Source: Mycoplasmoides pneumoniae FH (GTDB taxonomy: Bacteria; Bacillota_I; Bacilli_A; Mycoplasmatales; Mycoplasmoidaceae). Taken from it: 32,000 bases of DNA. The stretch covers positions 752,809 through 784,808 of the forward strand of contig NZ_CP010546.1 in the NCBI RefSeq assembly GCF_001272835.1, given 5' to 3'. A program made the position numbers and the translations under genes. The notes under the pieces were generated by a model, which made no database searches, had not been told where the DNA came from, and saw only the letters and a program-made list of their open reading frames with translations. Positions 10,627-27,840 of the stretch are shown piece by piece (positions within the stretch are counted from its first letter, which is position 1; each line of letters opens with the position of its first letter).

Positions 10627-11181
10627 ATGAGTCCAGAAAAATACCTGAACTTCTTTAAAGAAACCGCTGATAAAAAGTTCCAATGACTCAAAGAAGAATT
10701 GAGCAAAATCCGTACTGGTAGACCTAATCCAAAACTGTTTGATAATATCCTTGTGGAAAGCTATGGTGACAGAATGCCAATGGTAGCATTAGCACAAATT
10801 GCGGTAAATCCACCGCGGGAAATTGTGATCAAGCCGTTTGACGTTAAAAACAATATTAATGCCATCTACAGCGAAATTCAACGTGCTAACTTAGGTGTAC
10901 AACCAGTGATTGACGGAGATAAAATTCGCATTAACTTTCCCCCAATGACCCAAGAAAGTCGTTTGGAAAGCATTAAGCAAGCTAAAAAAGTAGTGGAACA
11001 AATCCACCAAGAGTTGCGCAGTGTGCGACGTGATACCCTTCAAATGATTAAGAAGGATGATCATAAAGACGAAGACTTTGAAGAATTCTTAAAAGAAGAA
11101 GTAGAAAAAGTTAACAAGCAGTATATTGCACAGTTAGAAACTATTCAAAAACAAAAAGAAAAAGAACTATTAGTGGTCTAA
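10627..11181 (+). CDS. frr: ribosome recycling factor, 184 aa
   Basis: ATG at 10627, one in-frame TGA, then joins ORF 10699..11181. Typical RRF sequence ([20 protein letters not shown]...). Confidence 0.95.
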
Positions 11182-12387: not shown

Positions 12388-13515
12388 ATGACTCCTAAAT
12401 TAAAGCTTAACACTAACAGTAATTGAACTAAGAAAACCCTTGGCAGCTTATTTGAACTCAAGAAGGGTGAAATGCTCGAAAAAGAGCTATTGGCGCCCGA
12501 TGGTAAATACGAATACTTTAACGGTGGTATTAAAGCCTCTGGACGCACCAATGAGTTCAATACCTTTAAGAACACCATTAGCATTATCATAGGCGGTTCT
12601 TGTGGTTATGTCAGATTAGCCGATAAGGATTACTTCTGTGGCCAGAGTAGCTGTACCCTAACTGTTTTAGATCCCCTGGAAATTGACCTCAAGTTTGCTT
12701 ATTATGCACTTAAATCACAAGAGGAAAAAATTACCAGTTTAGCTAGCGGAACTACCATTAAAAACATTCGCCTAAGTGATTTAAAGGATTTACCTATTCC
12801 GCTTGTTAAAAGCATTCAGGATCAACGAACTATTGCACATGCTTTAAGTGTGTTTGACCTTCGCATCGAACACCTCAATGAATTAATTGAAGTAAACCGT
12901 AAGCTCAGAGACGAGTATGCCCACAAATTATTTACCTTAGATCCAGACTTCTTAACACACTGAAACCTACATGAACTCCATGAACAAATGGGTGAAATTA
13001 GTTTAGGTGAAGTGTTTCACTTAAAGAGTGGTAAATACTTAAAGGCTGATGAGCGCTTTGAGGATGGCAAATTCCCTTATTATGGTGCTGGTATTGAAAG
13101 CACTAGCTTTGTCAATGAACCCAACACCAAAGGTGATACTCTTTCAATGATTGCTAACGGTTACTCCATCGGAAACATTCGCTACCATACTATTCCTTGG
13201 TTTAATGGTACTGGTGGTATTGCCATGGAAGCATTAAAACCTAATGAAACCTATGTGCCGTTCTTTTACTGTGCTCTAAAATACATGCAAAAGGATCTAA
13301 AGGAACGCTTTAAACGTGATGAATCACCGTTTATTTCCTTAAAACTAGCCGGTGAAATTAAGGTTCCTTTCGTTAAATCGTTTGCACTCCAAAGAAAAGC
13401 CGGTAAGATTATTTACTTGTTAGATAAAACTCTTGAAGAATACAAAGAAGAAGCTAAGTCTTTAATCAGTATTCGCGATAACTTATTGGGCAAATTGTTC
13501 CCAACACTATCTTAA
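12388..13515 (+). CDS. hsdS: type I restriction-modification specificity subunit (two target-recognition domains), 375 aa
   Basis: ATG at 12388. ORFs 12472..12963 and 12988..13515 are in the same frame and joined by TGA. Two-fold architecture: each half has a TRD (LGSLFELKKGE / LGEVFHLKSGK) followed by a helical conserved region (LNELIEVNRKLRDEYAHKLF / KSLISIRDNLLGKLF). Confidence 0.88.
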
Positions 13516-14363
13516 AGCAAAGCAAATAAGGTGTAAGGGAAAAGGTTAACACCTTCGTTATCAAAGCTCTGGTCTTTGAGACTGCTGGTTAAGCTATTCT
13601 CCAATAACTTCTTCATTAGATCACTCGTACTAGAAACTTGAATTCTTAACTTTGTGTTAAGTTTGATGTTACTGGTAAAACGGTCAAATGAAGCGCGGCC
13701 AAAGATGCCTTGAGTAGCTGGACTATATGTAAAAGTGGCTTCTAGAGCTTCATTTTGACCCATACTCATGGTTAAAGAATTTTGAGCATCTTTTTTCTTA
13801 GTTTCATCATCCTTAAAAATATTCTCTATATGGCTCATCGCCTTGGTTGGATCAATTTTTAAATCTGCCTTAATCTTAACCGTAGCCTCAAATTGCTTAT
13901 TCGATTCAACTTTGTAGGTAAACTCCTTCACTTCTTGCTTGCTAACAGTGATGGCTTGTTCAGCTAATAATTGAATCTCAGTTGTTGAACGTTCACTTAA
14001 CTTTAAACCCTTAAGCGTAGCATTGGGTTGAACACTGTTTTGGTTACTACCGTTGCCGAAGGATTTAGCAAAGCGGCCTACTTCAGTTTGCCAACGTTCT
14101 AATATTCTCTGTGAAAGCAAAGTGTACCTTCAACCTTCAAACAAGAGGTTTAAGGTACCTTTAGGATTTAAGCCGTAACTTTCGCGTAAAGTTGTAATTA
14201 AGGTACGTTTATTTTTCGTTAGTTCTGTGTTGCGATCTGCTAGGTTTTGCAGTTCTGATAAAGATTTAAGTTCAACGCTGGCAACTAGAGCAGAACAACT
14301 GCTTAAAATAAGCGCTAAACTAGGGATACTAGCTCAAATTCACTTCCTTAATTTAAGCGCCAT
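13512..14363 (-). CDS. lipoprotein, divergent beta-type member of the array family (recalled as MG439/MG440 family), 283 aa
   Basis: ATG at 14363 (MALKLRKWIWASIPSLALILSSC, signal peptide plus lipobox). Three in-frame TGA join it to ORF 13512..14120. C-terminus is NLFPYTLFALL. Confidence 0.85.
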
Positions 14364-14431
14364 ACTCCCTAACATGCAGTAATTAAACAATTGTAAAAAT
14401 TACCGCAAATACTGTAAAAGGACTAAAAGAA

Positions 14432-15286
14432 TTAAAGCAGAGCGTAGTAAAAAAACGGTAATAAATTAAATAACTTACCTGTTAATTGACGACTTTTCAT
14501 CTTTTTGACCTGTTCGTTGCTTTCTAATAATTCATTCAGCTTTGTGTGAGAAGTTGTTACATCAATCTTGACATTAGCGGGAAAGTTAATCGAACTAGTT
14601 GGTACATCAAAGGATTTATCAGAGAAGTTTCTAGCACCTCCAGTTGGTGGGGTATAGGTAAAAATAAAGTTACCAGTGAATTTGGCTTTTTCACCAGTGT
14701 ATTCACTTTCATCAATACTGTTTTTACCATTGCTACCTTTACCTCCCGAACTATTACCCTCTAAGAATGATTTAATCAATGCTTTGCTTGATTCATCAAT
14801 CTTTCCATCCATTTTGATTTGAATATTTACCTGAAACTTTTTTGGACTGTTTCAACTGTAAGAAAAACCACTAACTGTTTGCTTTTCAACTTTAAATACT
14901 TTAGCGATTTCTGAACTAATACCAGGAAAAGTGTCTGCTAAAAATAAACTTTTTTCACTAATGTTAGGGGTAATATCGTCCTTCTTGCTAGTAGAACCAA
15001 AAGCGCTAGCAAAGCGTGAAGCATCTAAATTTCTTTCTAAAAGCTTTTGATCCATTAAGGTGTACTTTCAACCTGCTAAAAGAGCGTTAACTGTTTTGTT
15101 AGGATCAGAGTTATAGCCATCTTTCAGAATGTTGATAACGTTCTTTTTGTTCAATTCACCTTTATTTGCTTCAAAGTATTTTTGCGCGCTACTTAAACTC
15201 GATATAACCTGGCTAGTTGCAGAGGAACAAGCGCTCAGCAATAAACTAGATCCTAATAAAGGAATTAATAACAGTTTAAGTTTCAT
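14432..15286 (-). CDS. lipoprotein, alpha-type (A2), 284 aa
   Basis: ORFs 15068..15286, 14852..15055 and 14432..14812 are in one frame, joined only by TGA. Signal peptide MKLKLLLIPLLGSSLLLSAC. C-terminus LLPFFYYALL. Confidence 0.88.
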
Positions 15287-15471
15287 TAGAGAATGGAATA
15301 AAGCAAGTAAGGTAAAAGATCAATTGATTGGTCTTGGAAAGTTTGACTGGACAAATTATTAGTAAAGGTAGTACTTTGAAGAATCTTTTTCATGATTTCG
15401 TCTTTACCAACCATATCTATTTTTAAGGTGGTATTGAAATTAATTTTCTTCATTAAAGTACGAAGTTCTTT
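15286..15471 (-). pseudogene. out-of-frame 3' tail of the beta-type lipoprotein gene at 15453..16115
   Basis: The alternate frame reads ...[56 protein letters not shown]. This is the family C-terminus. Its TAA overlaps the next gene's ATG, as in the intact pairs. Confidence 0.8.
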
Positions 15472-16115
15472 CTAGAGAAAAGATTTGATTCAGGTACAGT
15501 ATAGGTAAAAATAAGATCTGCAGAAAGAGTGCCACTTTCTTGTTTCAAATCACCATCATTTAAACCAATTTGTTGTAGATAAGATTGAACTTGACTTTTT
15601 TGGTATTTTCCTTGAGCATTAAGTTTTACTTGAACTTTAAAACTAGTTCGACTTTTGTATTGGATATTAAATGCTTCTACTTTTTGCTCATTTAGCGAAA
15701 TAACATTGTTGATAATATTAGCAGTGCTTGGTTCAAATCGTTTATCAAGTCTTAAACCTTTAACACTAGCATTAGGCTCAACATCTTCATTACTTTTTCC
15801 AGAGCCAAAAGCTTTGACAAATCTAGAAGGGTCTTTGCTCTCCAAAATTTTGGAATCTAATAAGGTAAATTTCCAAGCGTCTAATAAAACTTTGGTAGTT
15901 CCTTCAGGATTATTTTCAAATGCTTTTTGCAGTGACTCCACAAAAGCTTTCTTGTCTTGGGTTAGACTGGTATTTTGATTAACGCCTTCCCTCAATTGAT
16001 TCAAACTTGTTAAATTAGTTTGAAAATCAGAATTAGAACAAGCAGTTAAAGCTGTTCCGAACAACATGAATAAAGCACCTAATGAAGCTTTGGGTAATAG
16101 TCTTTTCTTATTCAT
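15453..16115 (-). CDS. lipoprotein, beta-type, C-terminally truncated by a 1-nt deletion, 220 aa as encoded
   Basis: Signal peptide [26 protein letters not shown]. Homology to intact beta genes (16957..17781, 19491..20324) continues in another frame after codon ~218. Confidence 0.8.
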
Positions 16116-16117
16116 CT

Positions 16118-16957
16118 TTAAAGTAGAGCATAGTAAAAGAAGGGTAGCAAGTCAATATTTCTTCCATTAAATGTACGACTTTTCATTCGCTTAACTTGAT
16201 CGTTTTTCTCAAGCAGTTCATTTAGTTTATTATGCGAAGTGTTCACATCAATCTTTACATCAGCAGGGAAATTGATCATATTGGTGATAACATCAAATGA
16301 TTTATCGGTTAAAGATCTAGTACCTCCAGTTGGTGGAGTATAGGAAAAGATAAAGTCTGCAGTGAATTTAGCTTTATCTCCAGTATATTCACTTTCTTCT
16401 ACGCTATTACTTCCATTTGAATCTTTGTTACTCAAAAAAGACTTAATTGTTTCCTTACTCTTTTCATTAATCATCCCTTCCATCTTTATGTGGATGTTTA
16501 CTTTAAAACTTTTAGGGCTGGTTCAGCTGTAAGAAAAACCACTAACAATTTGTTTTTGTACATTAAACACTTCAGCAATTTGACTTCCTAAACCAGTAAA
16601 AGTTTCATTTAAAAATAAACCTTTCTCGCTAATATTCGGAGTAACGTCATCTTTATTTTTATTCGGGCCAAAAGTATTTTTAAAACGAGATGGATCTAAA
16701 TTATTTTCCAACAATTTTTGATCCATTAAGGTGTACTTCCAGCCTGCTAGTAAGGCGTTAACTGTTTTGTTAGGATCAGAGTTATAGCCATCTTTCAGAA
16801 TGTTGATAACGTTATTTTTATTCAACTCACCTTTATTTGCTTCAAAGTATTTTTGAGCGCTACTTAAACTCGATATAACCTGGCTGGTAGTGGAAGAACA
16901 TGCACTTAAAATAATGCCGGAAGCTAAAAGAGGAATTAAATAAAGTTTAAGTTTCAT
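16118..16957 (-). CDS. lipoprotein, alpha-type (A2), 279 aa
   Basis: ORFs 16523..16957 and 16118..16483 are in the same frame, joined by TGA. Signal peptide [21 protein letters not shown]-terminus LLPFFYYALL. Confidence 0.88.
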
Positions 16958-17781
16958 TAGAGTATGGAGTAAAGCACGTAAGGCAAGAGATTTATCGATT
17001 GGTCTTGAAATTTTTGATCAGCTAGTTGCTTTACAAAACTACTTTGTTGCAATAATTTAGTCATCACACTATCTTTGCCTATAATTTGTATTCGTAAATT
17101 GGTATTAAAGTTGATGGCTCTTGTTAGTTTGTCAAATTTACTTGCAGAAAAGAAACTGGCAGCAGGTGGCATATAGGTGTAAATTATTTCAGCTTCTAAT
17201 GTACCTGTATCATTTAGATCACCATCTGATAAACCTACTTGACTTAAATAAGTTTTTACAGTATCCTTTTTGTAATTACCTTTAGCATTAATTTTTACTT
17301 GAACTCTAAAGTTTTTAGGATCTTTGTATTGAATGCTAAAAGCTTCTACTTTTTGTTTGTCCAGTTTAATTACGTTATTAATTATATTGGCAGTGTCTTG
17401 TGTGTATCTTTCCACCAAGCGTAAACCCCTTACTCCAGCACTAGGCTCTACATCTTCAATGCTTCTGCCAGAACCAAAAGATTTACTAAATTTGGAAAAA
17501 TCTTGTTTTTCTAAAATTTGAGCGTCTAAAAGCGTAAACTTTCAAGCGTCTAATAAAACCCTAGTAGTGCCTTCTGGATTATTTTCAAAAGCTGATTTTA
17601 AGGCTGTAACTAAATCAGCTTTATTTTGGGTTAAATTAGTATTTTTACTTGCACTGGTTCTTAATTGATTCAAGCTAGTAAGATTTGCTTCAAAACCAGA
17701 ATTAGAACAAGCAGTTAAAGCTGTTCCAAACAACATAAATAAAGCGCCTAAGCTTGTCTTATTTCAAATTTTCTTTTTCAT
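16957..17781 (-). CDS. lipoprotein, beta-type, 274 aa
   Basis: ATG at 17781 ([25 protein letters not shown]). I translated 17419..17541 by hand and it contains only sense codons plus TGA, joining ORFs 17542..17736 and 16957..17418. C-terminus [10 protein letters not shown]. Confidence 0.88.
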
Positions 17782-17785
17782 ATTT

Positions 17786-18637
17786 TTAGAGTAAGGCATA
17801 AAAATAGAAGGGCAATAGATCAAATGATTTACCAGTAAACGAACGACTTTTAATTTTTTTAACATGTTCGTTGTTTTGCATTAGGATATTGAGTTTTTCA
17901 TGAGTTGTGCTTGCATCAATTTGAAGATTAGCAGGGAAATTAATTGTTCCAGTGATTGGATCAAAGTTACTAAATGCAAATCTTCTTCCATCTGTAGGCG
18001 GAGTAAAAGTGAATATGAATGTGCCATCAAAGTTTGCATTTCCATTATTAAAATCATTTTCAGTAACATTGCCATTATTTCCAGAGCTCAAGAAAGATTT
18101 AATTAAAGAATTACTTTCTTCACCACTGCCAACAATGCCTTGCATCATAAAAGATATAACTACTTTAAAGTTAGTGGTGCTAGATCAGCTGTAAGAAAAT
18201 CCAGTTACTTTTTGGCTTTGCACTCCAAGTACTTTAACTATTTGTTGACTTACACCACTGTAAGTTTCATCTAAAAATAAACCTTTCTCACTAATACTTG
18301 GAATGACATCATCTTTGCCTTTGTTAGTACCAAATGCTTTTGTAAAGCGACTAGCATCTAGATTTCTTTCCAGTATTTTTTGATCCATTAAGGTGTACTT
18401 TCAACCAGCAAAAAGTGAATTAACTGTAGCTTTTGAATCAGTACTGTAACCTTCTTTTAAAAGATTAATTACATTCTTTTTGATTAGTTCACTTTTGTGA
18501 GCATCAAAGTATTTTTGCGCACTACTTAAACTAGAAATAACATTGGTGGCAGTTGATGAACAGGCACTTAAAGCAGTGCCGAACAATAAAAATAAAGCAT
18601 CTAATGGAGTTCTGAATAATAGCCTTTTCTTATTCAT
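17786..18637 (-). CDS. lipoprotein, alpha-type body with beta-like signal peptide (A1), 283 aa
   Basis: ORFs 18401..18637, 18185..18388 and 17786..18148 are in one frame, joined by TGA. Signal peptide MNKKRLLFRTPLDALFLLFGTALSAC. C-terminus LLPFYFYALL. Confidence 0.88.
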
Positions 18638-18639
18638 CT

Positions 18640-19491
18640 TTAAAGTAGTGCGTAGTAAAAGAACGGTAACAAGTCAAAGGTTTTACCAGTAAACTTACGG
18701 CTTTTAATCTGTTTTACTTGTTCATTGGCTTCCATTAAAGTATTTAACTTTTGGTGAGTAGTGCTTACATCTATTTGTAAGTCTGCTGGAAAGTTAATCT
18801 TAGTTGTAAGAGGGTCAAAAGAAGTGGCACCAAATTTTCTACTTTGAGTAGGAGGTGTATAAGTAAAAGTAAAGAAACCATCGAAATTAGCAGAATCACC
18901 ATTAAAGTCAGTTTCTTTTACTCCGCCATTTTGATTTGATCCATTGTTATCAGAACTTAAAAAAGATTTAATTAATTGTTGACTCTCTGAATCACTTCCA
19001 ACTTTTCCCTTCATACTAATTTGAATTTGTACTTTAAAGTCAGAGTTACTGGATCACTTGTAATTAAATTGTTTAACAGTTTGACTTTGTACACCTAAGA
19101 CTTTGGCAATTTGAATACTAAAGCCAGTGTAAGTTTCGTTTAAGTACAATCCCTTTTCACTAACACTAGGAGTTACATCGCCTTTATCGCGTCCGCTACC
19201 AAAAGCTTTGATAAAGCGACTATCAACTTCTTTAGAAAGTAATTGCTGGTCCATAAGTGTGTACTTTCAACCAGCTAGCAAAGCATGGACTGCCTTATTA
19301 GCATCAGATTCATAACCTTCCTTTAAGATTTTGATGACATTCTTTTTGTTGAGTTCACCTTGACTGGATTCAAAGTATTTTTGAGCACTACTTAAACTAG
19401 AAATTACTTGAGTAGCTGCTGAAGAACAAGCGCTTAACAACAAACTAGAACCTAAAAGAGGAATTAATAGAAATTTAAGTTTCAGTTTCAT
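18640..19491 (-). CDS. lipoprotein, alpha-type (A2), 283 aa
   Basis: ORFs 19267..19491, 19054..19254 and 18640..19014 are in one frame, joined by TGA. Signal peptide [23 protein letters not shown]-terminus LLPFFYYALL. Confidence 0.88.
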
Positions 19492-20324
19492 TAGAGGATG
19501 GAGTAAAGTACGTAAGGCAGTAAATTAACTGCTTGGTTTGGGTAATTAACACTGGCAAGATTATTAGTGAAGGCACTACTGTTAAGAATCTTTCTCATTA
19601 CTTCGTCTTTACCAACCATTTCTAATTTCAGATTGGTATTGAAATTAATCGATTTAGTTAACTTGTCAAAATTACTCTTAGAAAACAAATTTGAAGCAGG
19701 TGGAGTGTAAGTGAAGATTAAATCAGCTTCTAAAGTGCCTTCTTCCTTATCGCCCAGTTCATTATCTTGAAGACCAATTTGTGACTTATATTTCTCGACT
19801 TCACTCTTTTTGTAATTACCTTTTGCATTCAGCTTAATCTGAATAGTGAAATCACGACTACTTTTAAAGCGAATATTAAAAACCTCTACTTTTTGTTGAT
19901 CCAATAAAATTGCATTTTTAATAAGACTAGCTGTGTTATCACCAAAACGTTCAACAAATCTTAAACCACGTACGCCAGCACTAGGTTCTATGTCTTCCTT
20001 ACTTTTACCGCTACCAAATGCTTTAACAAATTTAACTGGATCTTGTTTTTCCAAAATCTTCGCATCATAAAGACTAAACTTTCAGGCATCTAGTAAAACC
20101 TTAGTGGTACCTTCTGAATTATTTTCAAAGGCAGTTTTTAAAGCATCAATTAAGGTATTTTTGTCCTGAGTTAAATTAATGTCTTTATTGGCTGAAGTTC
20201 TCAATTGGTTCAAACTAGTTAAGTTAGCTTGAAAGTCATAGTTAGAACAAGCAGTAAACGCTGTTCCTAATAAAAGAAACAAAGAACCAAAAGCGGTTTT
20301 AGATCAAATACTTTTTTTATTCAT
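19491..20324 (-). CDS. lipoprotein, beta-type, 277 aa
   Basis: ATG at 20324 ([26 protein letters not shown]). ORFs 20082..20282 and 19491..20054 are in the same frame, joined by TGA. C-terminus [10 protein letters not shown]. Confidence 0.88.
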
Positions 20325-20346
20325 GCTTCGAAATAAGGTTTAAAAA

Positions 20347-21219
20347 TTAGAGAAGGGCGTAGTAAAAAAAAGGCAAAAGATTAAATGATTTGCCTTTAAA
20401 AGAGCGGTTCTTAATCATTCCTACCTGAGTATTAGTTGTCATTAAAGTGTTTAACTTTTCATGACTAGTACTTACCTCAATTTGGAGATCAGCAGGAAAA
20501 TTGATGGTTCCAGTAATTGGATCAAAGTTGCTGGACGCAAGTCTTCTGCCATCGGAAGGTTGAGTGTAAGTAAAGATAAAATTGCCATCAAAGTTAGCTT
20601 GGTCACCTTCAAAATCTTTTTCAGTTACACCACCATTTTGATTATTGCTTCCACTGCCTTTGCTATCAGTACCTAAAAAAGACTTAATTAAAGTTTGACT
20701 TGTGCCATCACTACCAACTTTTCCTTTCATTTTGATTAAGATTTTGACCTCAAACTTGGTTTTGCTAGTTCAGCTATAAGAAAAACCAGTTACCTTTTGG
20801 CTTTGGACACCAAGAACTTGAGCGATTTGACTACTTACACCGGGATAAGTTTCTGCAAGATATAAACCTTTTTCACTGATGTTCGGGGTAACATCATCTT
20901 TAGTGTTAGAACCAAAAGCTTTAGAAAAACGGGAAGGATCCATTGGGTTCTCCAATAACTTTTGATCCAGCAAGCTGTATTTTCAGCCAGCTAATAAAGA
21001 ATTAACTGTTGACTTGGGATCAGAATTATAACTATCCTTCAAAATGGTTACTAGATTACGTTTATTAAGTTCTTTTTTGTTGGCACTAAAGTACTTCTGG
21101 GCACTACTAAAACTGGAAATTACTTCTGTGGTGGCAGAGGAGCAGGCACTTAAAGCTGTGCCAAACAGGAAAAACAAAGAACCTAGACTGGTCTTTGACA
21201 AAATCGATTTTTTGTTCAT
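20347..21219 (-). CDS. lipoprotein, alpha-type body with beta-like signal peptide (A1), 290 aa
   Basis: ORFs 20983..21219, 20770..20973 and 20347..20730 are in one frame, joined by TGA. Signal peptide MNKKSILSKTSLGSLFFLFGTALSAC. C-terminus LLPFFYYALL. Confidence 0.88.
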
Positions 21220-21295: not shown

Positions 21296-21319
21296 ATAAG
21301 AGGAGATTTATCCTCTTAT
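21296..21319 (-). terminator. candidate terminator hairpin downstream of the 21330..21740 gene
   Basis: Perfect 9-bp inverted repeat ATAAGAGGA / TCCTCTTAT with a 6-nt loop, 10 nt past the stop. On the minus strand it is followed by CTCATTGTTTGT. Confidence 0.4.
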
Positions 21320-21329
21320 TTAGTATGAG

Positions 21330-21740
21330 TTAACGCAATTCAAAGAAAAGCGGGCGGTATTTAAAAAAACAGAAGTAATCACTAAGTTTGGAATTAATTA
21401 CCTCCTTTTCAATGACAACTACAATCTCTAACTTAGGCGTTTCTTCTATTACTTCTGGTTGATTGTCTTCTTCTATGCTTGGTTGTTCAATTAAAAGGCC
21501 AATAAAATTATGAACTTGGCGTTCAATAAAGAAAACAAAGTTGTTTAAAGAACTAAAATCGTTTTTAATACTTCTTCAAGCTTTAATTAACAGATTAAAG
21601 GTATAGTAGTTATTTAATGAGTGGGTGACACGAAAATTAAATAACTTAAATAATGTTTTCGAAAGAAAAACAAGACCGTTAATTAAAAACAAGGAGACTA
21701 GTAAGATAGCTAGTACATTTGCTTTAAATTGGCTTTTCAT
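21330..21740 (-). CDS. hypothetical small membrane protein, 136 aa (absent from the ORF track because of one TGA)
   Basis: Hand translation: MKSQFKANVLAILLVSLFLINGLVFLSKTLFKLF...IKAWRSIKNDF...EQPSIEEDNQPEVIEETPKLEIVVVIEKE...FFELR*. Length is divisible by 3 with a single in-frame TGA. It has an N-terminal TM helix and an acidic centre. Confidence 0.55.
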
Positions 21741-22035: not shown

Positions 22036-22437
22036 TATTTTTCAATTGAATGTCTTAAAAAACGAAAAAATCTTATTTCTTGTTCTGTTCGATCATCGAA
22101 ATGATTTTCAAACTCTTCTCTGTCCGCATTACTTTGACCAATATATTCCCAACTTGATGTTCCATAAAGAATTATTTCTCCGTGTTCCAAATTAAAACTA
22201 TTGTTGCATTTGGTAGTTTTATCGTGATCTTTTCATAAGAAGTTTTTAAAGATTTAACTAGATTTGTATGGCCTGTTTCTGTTTCAATTTCTTCAGACCA
22301 ATTTAAATCTTCGTTAGTATTGTTTTAATCAAACTTTATATCTCTGATTTGACATTGGAACAAGCACTTAAAGCTGTATCGCACAAAATAAATAAAGCTC
22401 CTAGACTTGTTTTAGATAAAACTTTACTCTTACACAT
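22036..22437 (-). pseudogene. remnant of a gamma-type lipoprotein gene (signal peptide plus frameshifted fragments)
   Basis: ATG at 22437 gives [33 protein letters not shown]. Downstream fragments in other frames (TNEDLNWSEEIETETGHTNLVKSLKTSYEK...) resemble the N-terminal region of the genes at 23327 and 27721. Confidence 0.5.
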
Positions 22438-22626
22438 AACGAAGATAGATGAATTAAATGTTGATCCATTTTGCTTTTTTTGGAAAAGACGTGCTTGAAA
22501 ACTTCAAAATCACTTAATTTTTAGGTTTCCTGGTTTGTAATTTTGAAGTAAAAAGCTTTTAAAAATTTTTAAAAAAGTTTTTTATTTAACTAAAAAGTTT
22601 TGAGGAATTAAGTAAATCTTAATAAG

Positions 22627-23037
22627 TTATCTAATTACGTAAACTAAATAACTAAAAAGGTTGATTTTGTAGTCATCAATTTGAAAAGCTCTTGCTCTAC
22701 CAAAAACACTTAATTCAAAAAGTTTTTTGCTAACTTCGTCTTTTCCTTCTAATCTCCAGCTAAATGAAACATAAAAGTCGATTGCTTCTGAATCAGGTTT
22801 AAAGTTTTCTGCTGCAAATGGATGGTTGGGAGAAGCTTTAAAAGTAAAAAAGAGATCAAAATAAAGCTTTTCACCTTTTTTTGGAGCGAAACCTATTGAA
22901 AAATCATTGCCATACCATGTAAAGGTATAGTTCAATTTGGCAACAACTGAAAAATCACTAAGGCTTTGGTAATTCAAATTGAAATACTCAACCTTTTGTT
23001 CGATACTAAAGAAACTAGTGCTTAAGGAAATTTTCAA
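22627..23037 (-). pseudogene. C-terminal body of the same gamma-type lipoprotein gene, displaced into another frame
   Basis: The 136-aa ORF has no ATG start. Its sequence (EQKVEYFNLNYQSLSDFSVVAKLNYTFTW ... KINLFSYLVYVIR*) is collinear with the bodies of the alpha/beta genes. A single indel near 23030-23040 would fuse it to 23022..23327. Confidence 0.65.
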
Positions 23038-23327
23038 TTAGTTCAATTAGTTTCAGAACTCTCTATTTGACCGTTTTCTACACTTTGCTTCCAGGCATTC
23101 AAGAGTACACTAGCTGTTTTGCTAGGGTTAGTTTCGTAAGACTTCTTTAAAGAACTTATTAAATTCTTCTTTCCCTCAGAAGTACTAACTGATTCAGACA
23201 AATCAAGGTCTTGATCGGTGGTTTCCTTAATAAGACTTTTCAAATTAGCTCCAACATTGACGCTAGAACAAGCGCTAAATAATAAAGCTGAAAATAATAA
23301 CGGAGTTGATAGATATTTAAATTTCAT
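23022..23327 (-). CDS. gamma-type lipoprotein, N-terminal part of a split gene, 101 aa in code 4
   Basis: [20 protein letters not shown] is a signal peptide plus lipobox. The TGA at 23043-23045 reads through to TAA at 23022-23024. Confidence 0.7.
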
Positions 23328-23912
23328 TAGAGGACTGAATAAACCAGATATAGCAGTAAATTTACTTTGTAATCAAAGTAAATTTTATCTACCAATTTTC
23401 CAATAGAACCATTATCTAAAAGTTTTTTGGTTATTTCATCCTTAGGAAAAACTTCTAGTCTCATTGTTGTTTAAAAATCAATGGAATATCACAAATTCCC
23501 TAATTTATTATCAGAGTTTTTAACAATACTTGTCTCTAGAATTGGTTTGTTTTTAAATGGTTTGTATGTGTAAATAAGATCAAAATTAAGCAAGTAGTTG
23601 CCAAAGCCCGACATTATTAACCCTCCTTGATTTGGTTTTTGATTAATATCAGCATTAAAAGTTGTGTTCATTTTAACAACAACCTTAAAATCATTTTTAT
23701 TGTTTGCCTGAATGTCAAACAATTCAACTTTTTCGCTAATTGTTATTGATTTCTTGTGGAATTAAATGAATGGATTGATAAAAAAGGTTAAACATTACTT
23801 CTACCTTCTTCTCTCATAAGACTATTAAATCATTTGGAATAATACCAGTACCACAGGTGCTAAACAATAAAACTGCTGATAAAAATGGAACTGAAAGGTA
23901 CTTAAATTTAAT
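23327..23912 (-). pseudogene. heavily decayed gamma-type lipoprotein gene
   Basis: The start codon position reads ATT (IKFKYLSVPFLSAVLLFSTCG). There are several frameshifts, and ORF 23489..23722 is an internal piece. The tail reads ...[15 protein letters not shown], and its TAA overlaps the ATG at 23327. Confidence 0.6.
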
Positions 23913-26971: not shown

Positions 26972-27331
26972 TTACTTAATTAAAAATAGTAAGTAACTAA
27001 ATAAATTAACTTGCTTTTCGTCAGTTTTGTAACTAATATAGTCATTTAAAAAATTTTATCCAGATTTTTTTGGCTAAGTTCATCTTGTCCTTTTAATGAT
27101 CAGCTAAGTGAAACTTTAAGCTAAATTCATTCTGTTACTATTTTTTCAGCTTTTAATTCTTCATTTTTAACGATGAAGTTTTCTGCTGTAAATTGTTTTT
27201 TTGATTAGGTTTAATAGTAAGGGAAAGATCGAAAGAATACTCTTATCACCATTCTTGGCAGTGAAGCCATTATTGGAATACTGTCCATGCCAATTAAAGG
27301 TATAGATCAACTTAGCACTAATTGAAAAATT
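26972..27331 (-). pseudogene. multiply frameshifted body and tail of the gamma-type lipoprotein gene starting at 27721
   Basis: Fragments in different frames: [42 protein letters not shown], and the tail KQVNLFSYLLFLIK*. They are collinear with 22627..23037. Confidence 0.6.
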
Positions 27332-27721
27332 TTAATACTTCGATATTCAATGTCGAAACGCTCTACCTTTCGCTCCATTTTTAAAAGGATCTTTTTCTGT
27401 TGGATTAGTTACTTGGTCAAAATCAAGATCCGCAATGCCTAATTTGCCCTCTTCTGAGCTTTGTTTTCATGCGTCTAACAATAGCTTTGTTGTATCTTTT
27501 GGATTAACTTCATAAGATTTCTTTAAAGAATTTATGAGGTTTTGCCTACCTTCCGGAATTTTAATTGCTTTAGACAAATCAAAATCTTTGCCAGTTGTTT
27601 CTTTAAGAAGATTCCTAAGATTGGCTTGGATCCATGTGCAAGCACTTAATATTGTTCCACATAACAAAAACAAAGAACCGAAGGAAATCCTTGACAAAAG
27701 TTTCTTTTTACGCATTAACAT
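27332..27721 (-). CDS. gamma-type lipoprotein, truncated N-terminal ORF, 129 aa in code 4
   Basis: [28 protein letters not shown] is a signal peptide plus lipobox. The TGA at 27467-27469 reads through to TAA at 27332-27334. Confidence 0.7.
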
Positions 27722-27840
27722 AAAAAATAATGCATGATTTTGCTTTTTTGGAAAAGCCTTTTTAAGAAGAGGAAATTAATTGAAATTTCTGTTTAAACGT
27801 TATTTAAAAAATGAACTTTTTAAATTAGAAAAGCTATCTT

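Follow-up and report, generated by a model that had tools for sequence, protein, structure and literature searches.

The DNA examined here is a 32,000-nucleotide (nt) stretch of the Mycoplasmoides pneumoniae FH chromosome (contig NZ_CP010546.1, positions 752,809 to 784,808 of the forward strand), referred to below as the window. At 13512-21219 it carries, on the minus strand, a tandem array of nine lipoprotein genes (g1 to g9 in reading order), which is the M. pneumoniae Lipoprotein Multigene Family 6 (MPN639-MPN647), equivalent to Pfam PF00938 and already published and annotated. The genes are of two types, alpha and beta, and the alpha genes have been divided into A1 and A2 according to their signal peptides. 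An earlier note, made from the sequence alone, had read the array as a repeated A1-beta-A2 module. Comparison with Mycoplasma genitalium shows instead that what the two species have in common is a beta-to-alpha pair, coupled in translation and placed behind a small membrane-protein gene, and not a triplet.

In the corresponding locus of M. genitalium (L001), a gene encoding a DUF5426 protein is followed by MG440 (beta), MG439 (alpha) and a convergent hsdS gene, and MG440 and MG439 share base 10825 within the sequence TAATG. The array in the window is set in the same frame, with the DUF5426 gene before it and hsdS after it, and TAATG is present at all three of its beta-to-A2 junctions (g7-to-g8 being counted after frameshift repair), the junction region forming a conserved repeat block (D8). 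The two species therefore agree in synteny, gene order, TAATG overlap and signal-peptide types (A2 in MG439, beta in MG440), and the M. genitalium proteins are 51-59% identical to their M. pneumoniae counterparts. They differ in that M. genitalium has a single pair, lacks an A1 chimera and an MPN639-type gene, and has no detectable relics in the flanks. It is the MG440-MG439 pair, together with the TAATG common to both species, that points to the beta-to-alpha bicistron as the basic unit. The features of the locus are as follows.

21330-21740, minus strand: MPN648 (so assigned from its position and the published extent of the operon), encoding a small protein with an N-terminal membrane anchor (Pfam DUF5426), immediately upstream of the array.
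21296-21319, minus strand: hairpin (9-bp stem, T-rich tail) in the interval separating the DUF5426 gene from g1, a consensus match only.
20347-21219, minus strand: g1, MPN647 ("MG439 homolog 1"), 290 amino acids (aa), type A1, with a beta-type signal peptide and an alpha body.
21142-21159, minus strand: junction zone of the g1 chimera at codons ~21-26 (lipobox GTALSAC), beta-like upstream and alpha-like downstream by sliding-window nucleotide identity.
19491-20324, minus strand: g2, MPN646 ("MG440 homolog 1"), beta, 277 aa.
18640-19491, minus strand: g3, MPN645 ("MG439 homolog 2"), alpha, with a signal peptide like that of MG439, putatively the ancestral form; its start codon shares 1 nt with the stop codon of g2 (TAATG).
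17786-18637, minus strand: g4, MPN644 ("MG439 homolog 3"), the second A1 chimera, with its junction zone at ~18560-18577.
16957-17781, minus strand: g5, MPN643, beta, 274 aa, or 280 or 302 aa from other start sites found in annotations.
16118-16957, minus strand: g6, MPN642 ("MG439 homolog 4"), alpha, type A2, with a TAATG overlap with g5.
15286-16115, minus strand: g7, MPN641 ("MG440 homolog 3"), beta, frameshifted; the truncated reading frame covers 15453-16115.
14432-15286, minus strand: g8, MPN640 ("MG439 homolog 5"), alpha, type A2, 284 aa, with the canonical ...FFYYALL end.
14449-14455, minus strand: run of seven T (T7) near the 3' end of g8, T6 in the compared strains (L002-L005).
14390-14418, minus strand: weak promoter-like site (TTTACA, 17 nt, TACAAT; 10 of 12 positions matching) in the 68-nt spacer that precedes g9.
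13512-14363, minus strand: g9, MPN639, a divergent third lineage leaning towards beta, 283 aa (287 aa from a start at 14375).

The DUF5426 gene precedes the lipoprotein genes in both species (9497-9907 in the M. genitalium locus). The C-terminal motif of its product, EVINSKLSDYFCFFKYR, is identical in the two and the remainder is poorly conserved; this protein could be a functional partner of the lipoproteins. The hairpin that lies between it and g1 could act as a partial terminator or as a processing site.

All nine genes listed in the earlier note were recovered as co-oriented open reading frames (ORFs), each with an ATG start and a TAA stop and with lengths of 274-290 aa, the exception being g7, which is cut to 220 aa. 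The packing is indeed almost gap-free: from g1 to g9 the gaps are 22, -1, 2, 4, -1, 2, 166 and 68 nt, and the 166-nt gap between g7 and g8 becomes -1 nt once the g7 frameshift is repaired. What had been described as TGA read-through is the ordinary Mollicutes code, in which TGA encodes Trp; the coding share of the whole window is 94% under genetic code 4 versus 49% under code 11, and its GC content is 36%. Exact protein matches give Mycoplasmoides (Mycoplasma) pneumoniae as the source organism. The neighbours of the array are pgm, tpiA, tsf, pyrH, frr, cdsA and hsdS on one side and mtlA/mtlD, a GTPase gene, rplS and trmD on the other; scans of the window against Rfam and for tRNA genes returned no match.

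The identity of the family is supported by several lines of evidence. A lipobox (L/F-S/T-A/S-C) is present in the nine genes, with the Cys that is predicted to be lipidated at residue 20-26. The four proteins scanned against Pfam (g1, g2, g3 and g9) match PF00938 (Lipoprotein_3) with E values of 3e-85 to 4e-104 and scores of 286-348 bits, the gathering cut-off being 22.7, and in the precomputed gene tables of other strains this domain is assigned to nine of nine genes. The 18 quantitative reverse-transcription PCR primers designed for family 6 (Hallamaa 2008) all map exactly, one pair per gene and in the right order, g1 to g9 corresponding to MPN647 to MPN639. The locus is the same as that of the published family (Hallamaa et al., 2006/2008), its proteins are identical or near-identical, and there is no difference in kind; the lineage of the window has a truncated MPN641 and the canonical 284-aa MPN640. 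UniProt names MPN647, MPN645, MPN644, MPN642 and MPN640 "MG439 homolog 1-5" and MPN646 and MPN641 "MG440 homolog 1/3"; as these names separate MG439 from MG440 homologs, the alpha/beta distinction is already public. In NCBI all members are called "MPN647 family lipoprotein", although an NCBIfam scan returned no family.

The alpha/beta dichotomy itself was upheld by an all-against-all alignment and by a neighbour-joining tree of the mature proteins (support given as bipartition frequencies in the bootstrap), in which both clans were recovered at 100%. Pairwise identity is 57-76% among alpha proteins, 62-64% among beta proteins and 25-38% between the types. The earlier note had placed the difference mainly in the C-terminal halves; it extends instead over the whole length, with 27-38% identity in the N-terminal half and 23-31% in the C-terminal half. 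The alternation of types, fixed according to that note, is broken where A1 comes after A2. What is constant in the array is that every beta gene is followed by an A2 gene with a 1-nt overlap. A2 is a signal-peptide class only and not a clade of mature proteins, as {g3, g6, g8} has 10% bootstrap support; g6 and g8 group at 100% and g5 and g7 at 0%. The three beta genes of M. pneumoniae are monophyletic relative to MG440 (100%), and MG439 and MG440 fall in the alpha and the beta clan, respectively, each at 100%. The description of g9 as beta-like holds in part: it scores 183 bits against a beta hidden Markov model (HMM) and 135 against the alpha model, yet it represents a third deep lineage with ~30% identity to all the others. 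Alpha proteins also carry a loop rich in glycine, serine and asparagine and of variable length at residues ~165-200 (~20620-20725 in g1), of which beta has a much reduced version; among the internal segments it is modelled with the lowest confidence, and nowhere do the paralogs vary more in length.

The mosaic nature of the A1 genes (beta-style signal peptide, alpha body) was confirmed at the DNA level by sliding-window nucleotide comparison, which revealed a sharp switch at the lipobox. In codons 1-20, g1 and g4 are 47-85% identical to the beta genes and 30-59% to the A2 genes; from the Cys codon on, identity is 67-97% to the A2 genes and 17-52% to beta. The 5' end of g4 is nearest that of g7 (77-85% identity) and is grouped with the three beta 5' ends in one repeat family (D7), and the junction string TAAAGATGAATAAGAAAAG is common to the A2-to-A1 (g3-g4) and the A2-to-beta (g6-g7) junctions. 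Within the A2 genes, a 180-nt tract (16718-16897 in g6, 15047-15226 in g8) is ~91% identical, compared with ~70% elsewhere, the trace of a past gene conversion between these two copies.

Based on these data, a history of the array can be proposed. The ancestral operon would have consisted of a DUF5426 membrane-protein gene, a beta gene and an alpha gene, as in MG441-MG440-MG439, and the beta-to-alpha pair would have been amplified to three copies in M. pneumoniae. In such a tandem array a beta gene may mispair with an alpha gene, and unequal crossing-over would convert [B A][B A] into [B A][B::A][B A], so that the A1 genes g1 and g4 would be beta::alpha chimeras fused at the conserved lipobox. 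A single step of this kind would leave A1 in the "beta slot" behind A2, with an A2-to-beta junction, and would explain both its beta signal peptide and the succession of beta and A2 after it. Gene conversion between g6 and g8 and lineage-specific frameshifts in g7 and g8 would be later changes, and g9 may be an older offshoot that is transcribed separately.

The paralogs are old and individually maintained under purifying selection, with no ongoing homogenisation: between them the proportion of synonymous differences is 0.64-0.79 (saturated) and the ratio of nonsynonymous to synonymous change (dN/dS) is 0.09-0.22. Between strains the array is nearly invariant, as four other strains carry the same nine genes with 12-13 differences in 8.4 kb (99.85% identity), two of which are indels. 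One of these is the deletion of a single A (GAT to GT) at 15460/15461 in g7, which yields the 220-aa product; the other 55 codons of the gene can still be read without interruption in the -1 frame, up to the TAATG shared with g8. Intact 276-aa MPN641 alleles were found on 457 contigs and truncated ones on 125. The other is the T6/T7 run in g8. With T6, as in the four other strains, the frame changes and a 21-residue hydrophobic tail takes the place of the last 5 residues, giving a 300-aa protein that has lost ...YYALL; this allele of MPN640 is found on 462 contigs and the 284-aa allele on 154. The lesions of the third pair are reciprocal: MPN641 is intact where g8 is altered, and MPN640 is intact where MPN641 is frameshifted. 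The two indels suggest that this pair is under relaxed constraint. In addition, MPN639 (13512-14375), which is intact in the window, is annotated as two pieces (85 and 197 aa) in ~80 contigs of strain 309-like genomes, which suggests that another member of the family has been disrupted in a particular lineage.

A profile search of 1.84 billion representative proteins produced 14 matches, and those that were traced are proteins of M. pneumoniae or M. genitalium, including members of the shorter family 5 (MPN011, MPN466, MPN650); judging by these traced matches, the family seems to be confined to the two species. Family 5 (MPN011/MPN012/MPN271/MPN411/MPN505, MPN466 and MPN650) is homologous to family 6 over the full length (hhalign probability 98%, E 4e-14, 225 columns) and shares with it the lipobox and a hydrophobic C-terminal ...NLFxYLxYLI tail; its members differ in being 231-252 aa long and scattered in the genome, without an alternating array or alpha/beta pairing. 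AlphaFold2 (AF2) models of alpha (predicted local distance difference test, pLDDT, 71; predicted template modelling score, pTM, 0.70) and beta (pLDDT 78, pTM 0.75) have one topology, with a predicted N-terminal helical bundle, five long antiparallel strands between which helices are inserted, and a short helix at the C terminus. Foldseek comparison of both models with the PDB gave nothing significant (best E 0.46 for alpha and 0.12 for beta), nor did sequence and profile searches of the PDB return anything below E 0.078.

BPI/TULIP/SMP and NTF2-like proteins recur among the top non-significant matches of both models. The likeness to lipid-binding cup folds and to the M. pneumoniae lipid scavenger P116 consists in long curved antiparallel strands packed against helices. 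For BPI/TULIP or NTF2-like proteins the best E value was 0.12, the template modelling (TM) score at most 0.33 and the Foldseek probability at most 0.35, so that the resemblance of the predicted fold to lipid-binding folds is taken as a lead only. The invariant residues are almost all hydrophobic or structural, and an enzymatic function was discarded on the grounds that the invariant columns contain no conserved polar or catalytic residues. Immunoglobulin binding was likewise rejected, given that recombinant MPN641, used as a control in published work, was negative for it.

Transcripts have been measured for all nine genes, and MPN647-644 were found to be polycistronic (Hallamaa 2008); the operon has also been given as MPN640 to MPN648 and discussed among the genes with passage-enriched, expression-altering transposon insertions (PMC12494982). 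The promoter-like site at 14390-14418 agrees with g9 lying outside this operon. A scan with the sigma-70 consensus, which fits M. pneumoniae promoters poorly, found 16 sites versus 27.5 in shuffled sequence; having fewer sites than shuffled sequence, such promoter calls are weak. MPN643 has been detected mostly in the culture supernatant, apparently cleaved beyond ~residue 50. In M. genitalium, a metal chelator raised MG_439 (log2 1.94), MG_441 (1.29) and MG_440 (1.28, in a separate supplement table) along with stress genes. The statement in the earlier note that the function of the family is unknown agrees with the literature found, in which none is assigned.

Regarding function, it is proposed that beta and alpha would be co-produced in fixed proportion through translational coupling and would work jointly on the cell surface as a heteromeric binding module without enzymatic activity and with an orphan two-domain fold, that their ectodomains would be partly shed, and that the extra copies would be diversified or redundant versions. 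As a whole, that is, in identity, origin and function, this explanation is considered the best available and reasonably probable. Its functional component, the alpha-beta heteromeric surface module, is favoured because adjacency, order and overlap are conserved across two species, and is put forward tentatively, as it is drawn from the conserved coupling. Signs of such coupling are the TAATG overlap in the three pairs and in M. genitalium, the polycistronic transcription and the chelator induction of MG_439-441. Searches of the accessible literature returned no data on an association of alpha with beta proteins.

Several observations weigh against this account. Gene conversion restricted to the 5' end would give a chimera sequence identical to that of the crossover product; unequal crossing-over is the preferred, inferred origin of the A1 genes because conversion would require that an alpha gene had also been duplicated independently. 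The A1-to-beta junctions (22 and 4 nt) are unlike the 2-nt A2-to-beta junction. The beta and A2 trees are not congruent, g6 and g8 forming a fully supported pair that their beta neighbours g5 and g7 do not mirror, and the g6/g8 conversion tract accounts for this mismatch in part only. The position of MG439 among the alpha genes is not settled by the tree (52% vs 38%), so that alpha copies may have been lost in M. genitalium instead of being gained in M. pneumoniae, and saturation of synonymous sites means that the events cannot be dated or ordered. As to function, the two A1 genes break a 1:1 stoichiometry, and g8 is without its own partner in the window, its C-terminus being altered in the other lineage; at least the third pair is dispensable.

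The explanation that competes best, possible though on balance unlikely, is that the genes are independent, partly redundant paralogs, each serving as a surface or shed binder, an immune decoy or a TLR2-stimulating protein, and that the beta-to-alpha order is a frozen accident of tandem duplication. Tolerance of the g7 and g8 frameshifts and of the split MPN639 (~80 contigs) would be expected in such a case, the passage-enriched transposon insertions (PMC12494982) fit dispensability in culture, a fixed stoichiometry is hard to reconcile with the A1 copies, MPN643 is shed into the culture supernatant, and the alpha loop, length-variable and modelled with low confidence, is in line with it. However, order and 1-nt overlap have been kept in two species despite saturated synonymous sites, the low dN/dS indicates that each copy is maintained, and alpha and beta have stayed distinct without homogenisation between the types.

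Duplication of an A1-beta-A2 triplet that functions as a unit, for example as a three-part complex, was the model of the earlier note and is improbable. The spacing of 2534-2540 nt between g2 and g5, and between the A2 genes that follow them, equals three genes, and g1 and g4 are mutual best matches in their mature proteins (67%), both of which are compatible with a duplicated triplet; nevertheless, {g1, g4} has only 42% support. M. genitalium has beta followed by alpha and nothing else, with the identical TAATG overlap, and the third unit of the array is devoid of an A1 gene. The A2 genes, moreover, are not counterparts of one another, given the 10% support for {g3, g6, g8} and the g6-g8 pairing, and the 5' end of g4 is nearest g7, not g2 or g5, the beta genes of the two modules.

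A more specific form of the preferred beta-to-alpha unit would be an obligate heterodimer with a fold restricted to the M. pneumoniae/M. genitalium lineage, its two partners being made in a fixed ratio through translational coupling, together with the DUF5426 protein. It would be anchored at the surface, could be shed, and would carry a hydrophobic molecule of the host (lipid or sterol) or some other nutrient in short supply. This is regarded as speculative and unlikely; if true, a wider range of ligands or of antigens would be gained in M. pneumoniae from the additional pairs and the beta::alpha chimeras.

Clustered paralogous genes for surface lipoproteins in a wall-less pathogen also recall Vsa, Vlp, Vsp, Vpma and vlhA, the variable lipoprotein loci of other mycoplasmas. 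A phase- or antigen-variation system of that type, generating recombinant or ON/OFF variants at high frequency, is very improbable here, and a switching antigen system was rejected: the tandem array of paralogs, the traces of past recombination (chimeras, conversion tract) and the T6/T7 difference between lineages can be cited in its favour, but the array is near-invariant between strains, each of its two indels is fixed within a lineage, on hundreds of contigs, and not mixed, the genes are co-transcribed, and the synonymous saturation of the paralogs argues that exchange is not ongoing. In contrast with those loci, neither an invertible promoter nor a repeat-tract switch was found in the array. 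Tandem repeats do not exceed ~2.4 short copies, there are no meaningful inverted repeats and none framing a promoter, and the only tract polymorphism, T6/T7, sits at the 3' end of g8. The ORF list of the window, whose flanking ORFs were not scanned against a family library, contains no evident recombinase-like ORF.

On either side of the array, other features deserve mention. The hsdS gene (12388-13515, plus strand), which encodes a type I restriction specificity protein, converges on g9, the ends of the two genes overlapping by 4 nt without a terminator-like hairpin; hsdS is also the neighbour in M. genitalium. Two further traces of lipoprotein genes lie upstream of the operon.

22339-23761, minus strand: decayed relatives upstream of the operon, nearer the family-5 (MPN011-like) branch.
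26975-27775, minus strand: disrupted family-5-like lipoprotein gene, whose N-terminal part scores 177 bits against the family-5 HMM, with downstream fragments in other frames.

The first of these regions comprises a C-terminal relic (23330-23761), MPN650 with a frameshifted C-terminal half (22630-23384) and a signal-peptide relic (22339-22581). Decayed lipoprotein fragments are thus situated between the array and the mannitol genes as well as beyond the latter, and the fragment region and the mannitol genes are absent at the M. genitalium locus. On the opposite side, between pyrH and frr, a gene with MPN635_N and SprT-like domains (9408-10550, plus strand) is split by an in-frame TAA at 10005-10007, where other strains have a 380-aa ORF; this gene and the one next to it with HATPase_c_3 and MPN635_N domains (7566-8936) are likewise absent at the M. 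genitalium locus.

Lipoproteins account for ~7% of M. pneumoniae genes and drive inflammation and vaccine-enhanced disease. To our knowledge, most lipoprotein families of this organism, family 6 included, have no known function. The array, the family and the alpha/beta distinction were already in databases and literature, and the detail added here is modest: the coupled beta-to-alpha unit as the probable ancestral state, the lipobox chimeras, the conversion tract, the two-species range and the predicted orphan fold. It may be useful to mycoplasma specialists and is not surprising. The locus can be removed from the candidate antigen-switching systems, and a coupled beta-to-alpha pair, with its two-pathogen range and a predicted fold without a solved relative, provides a testable start for an orphan family in two minimal-genome models.

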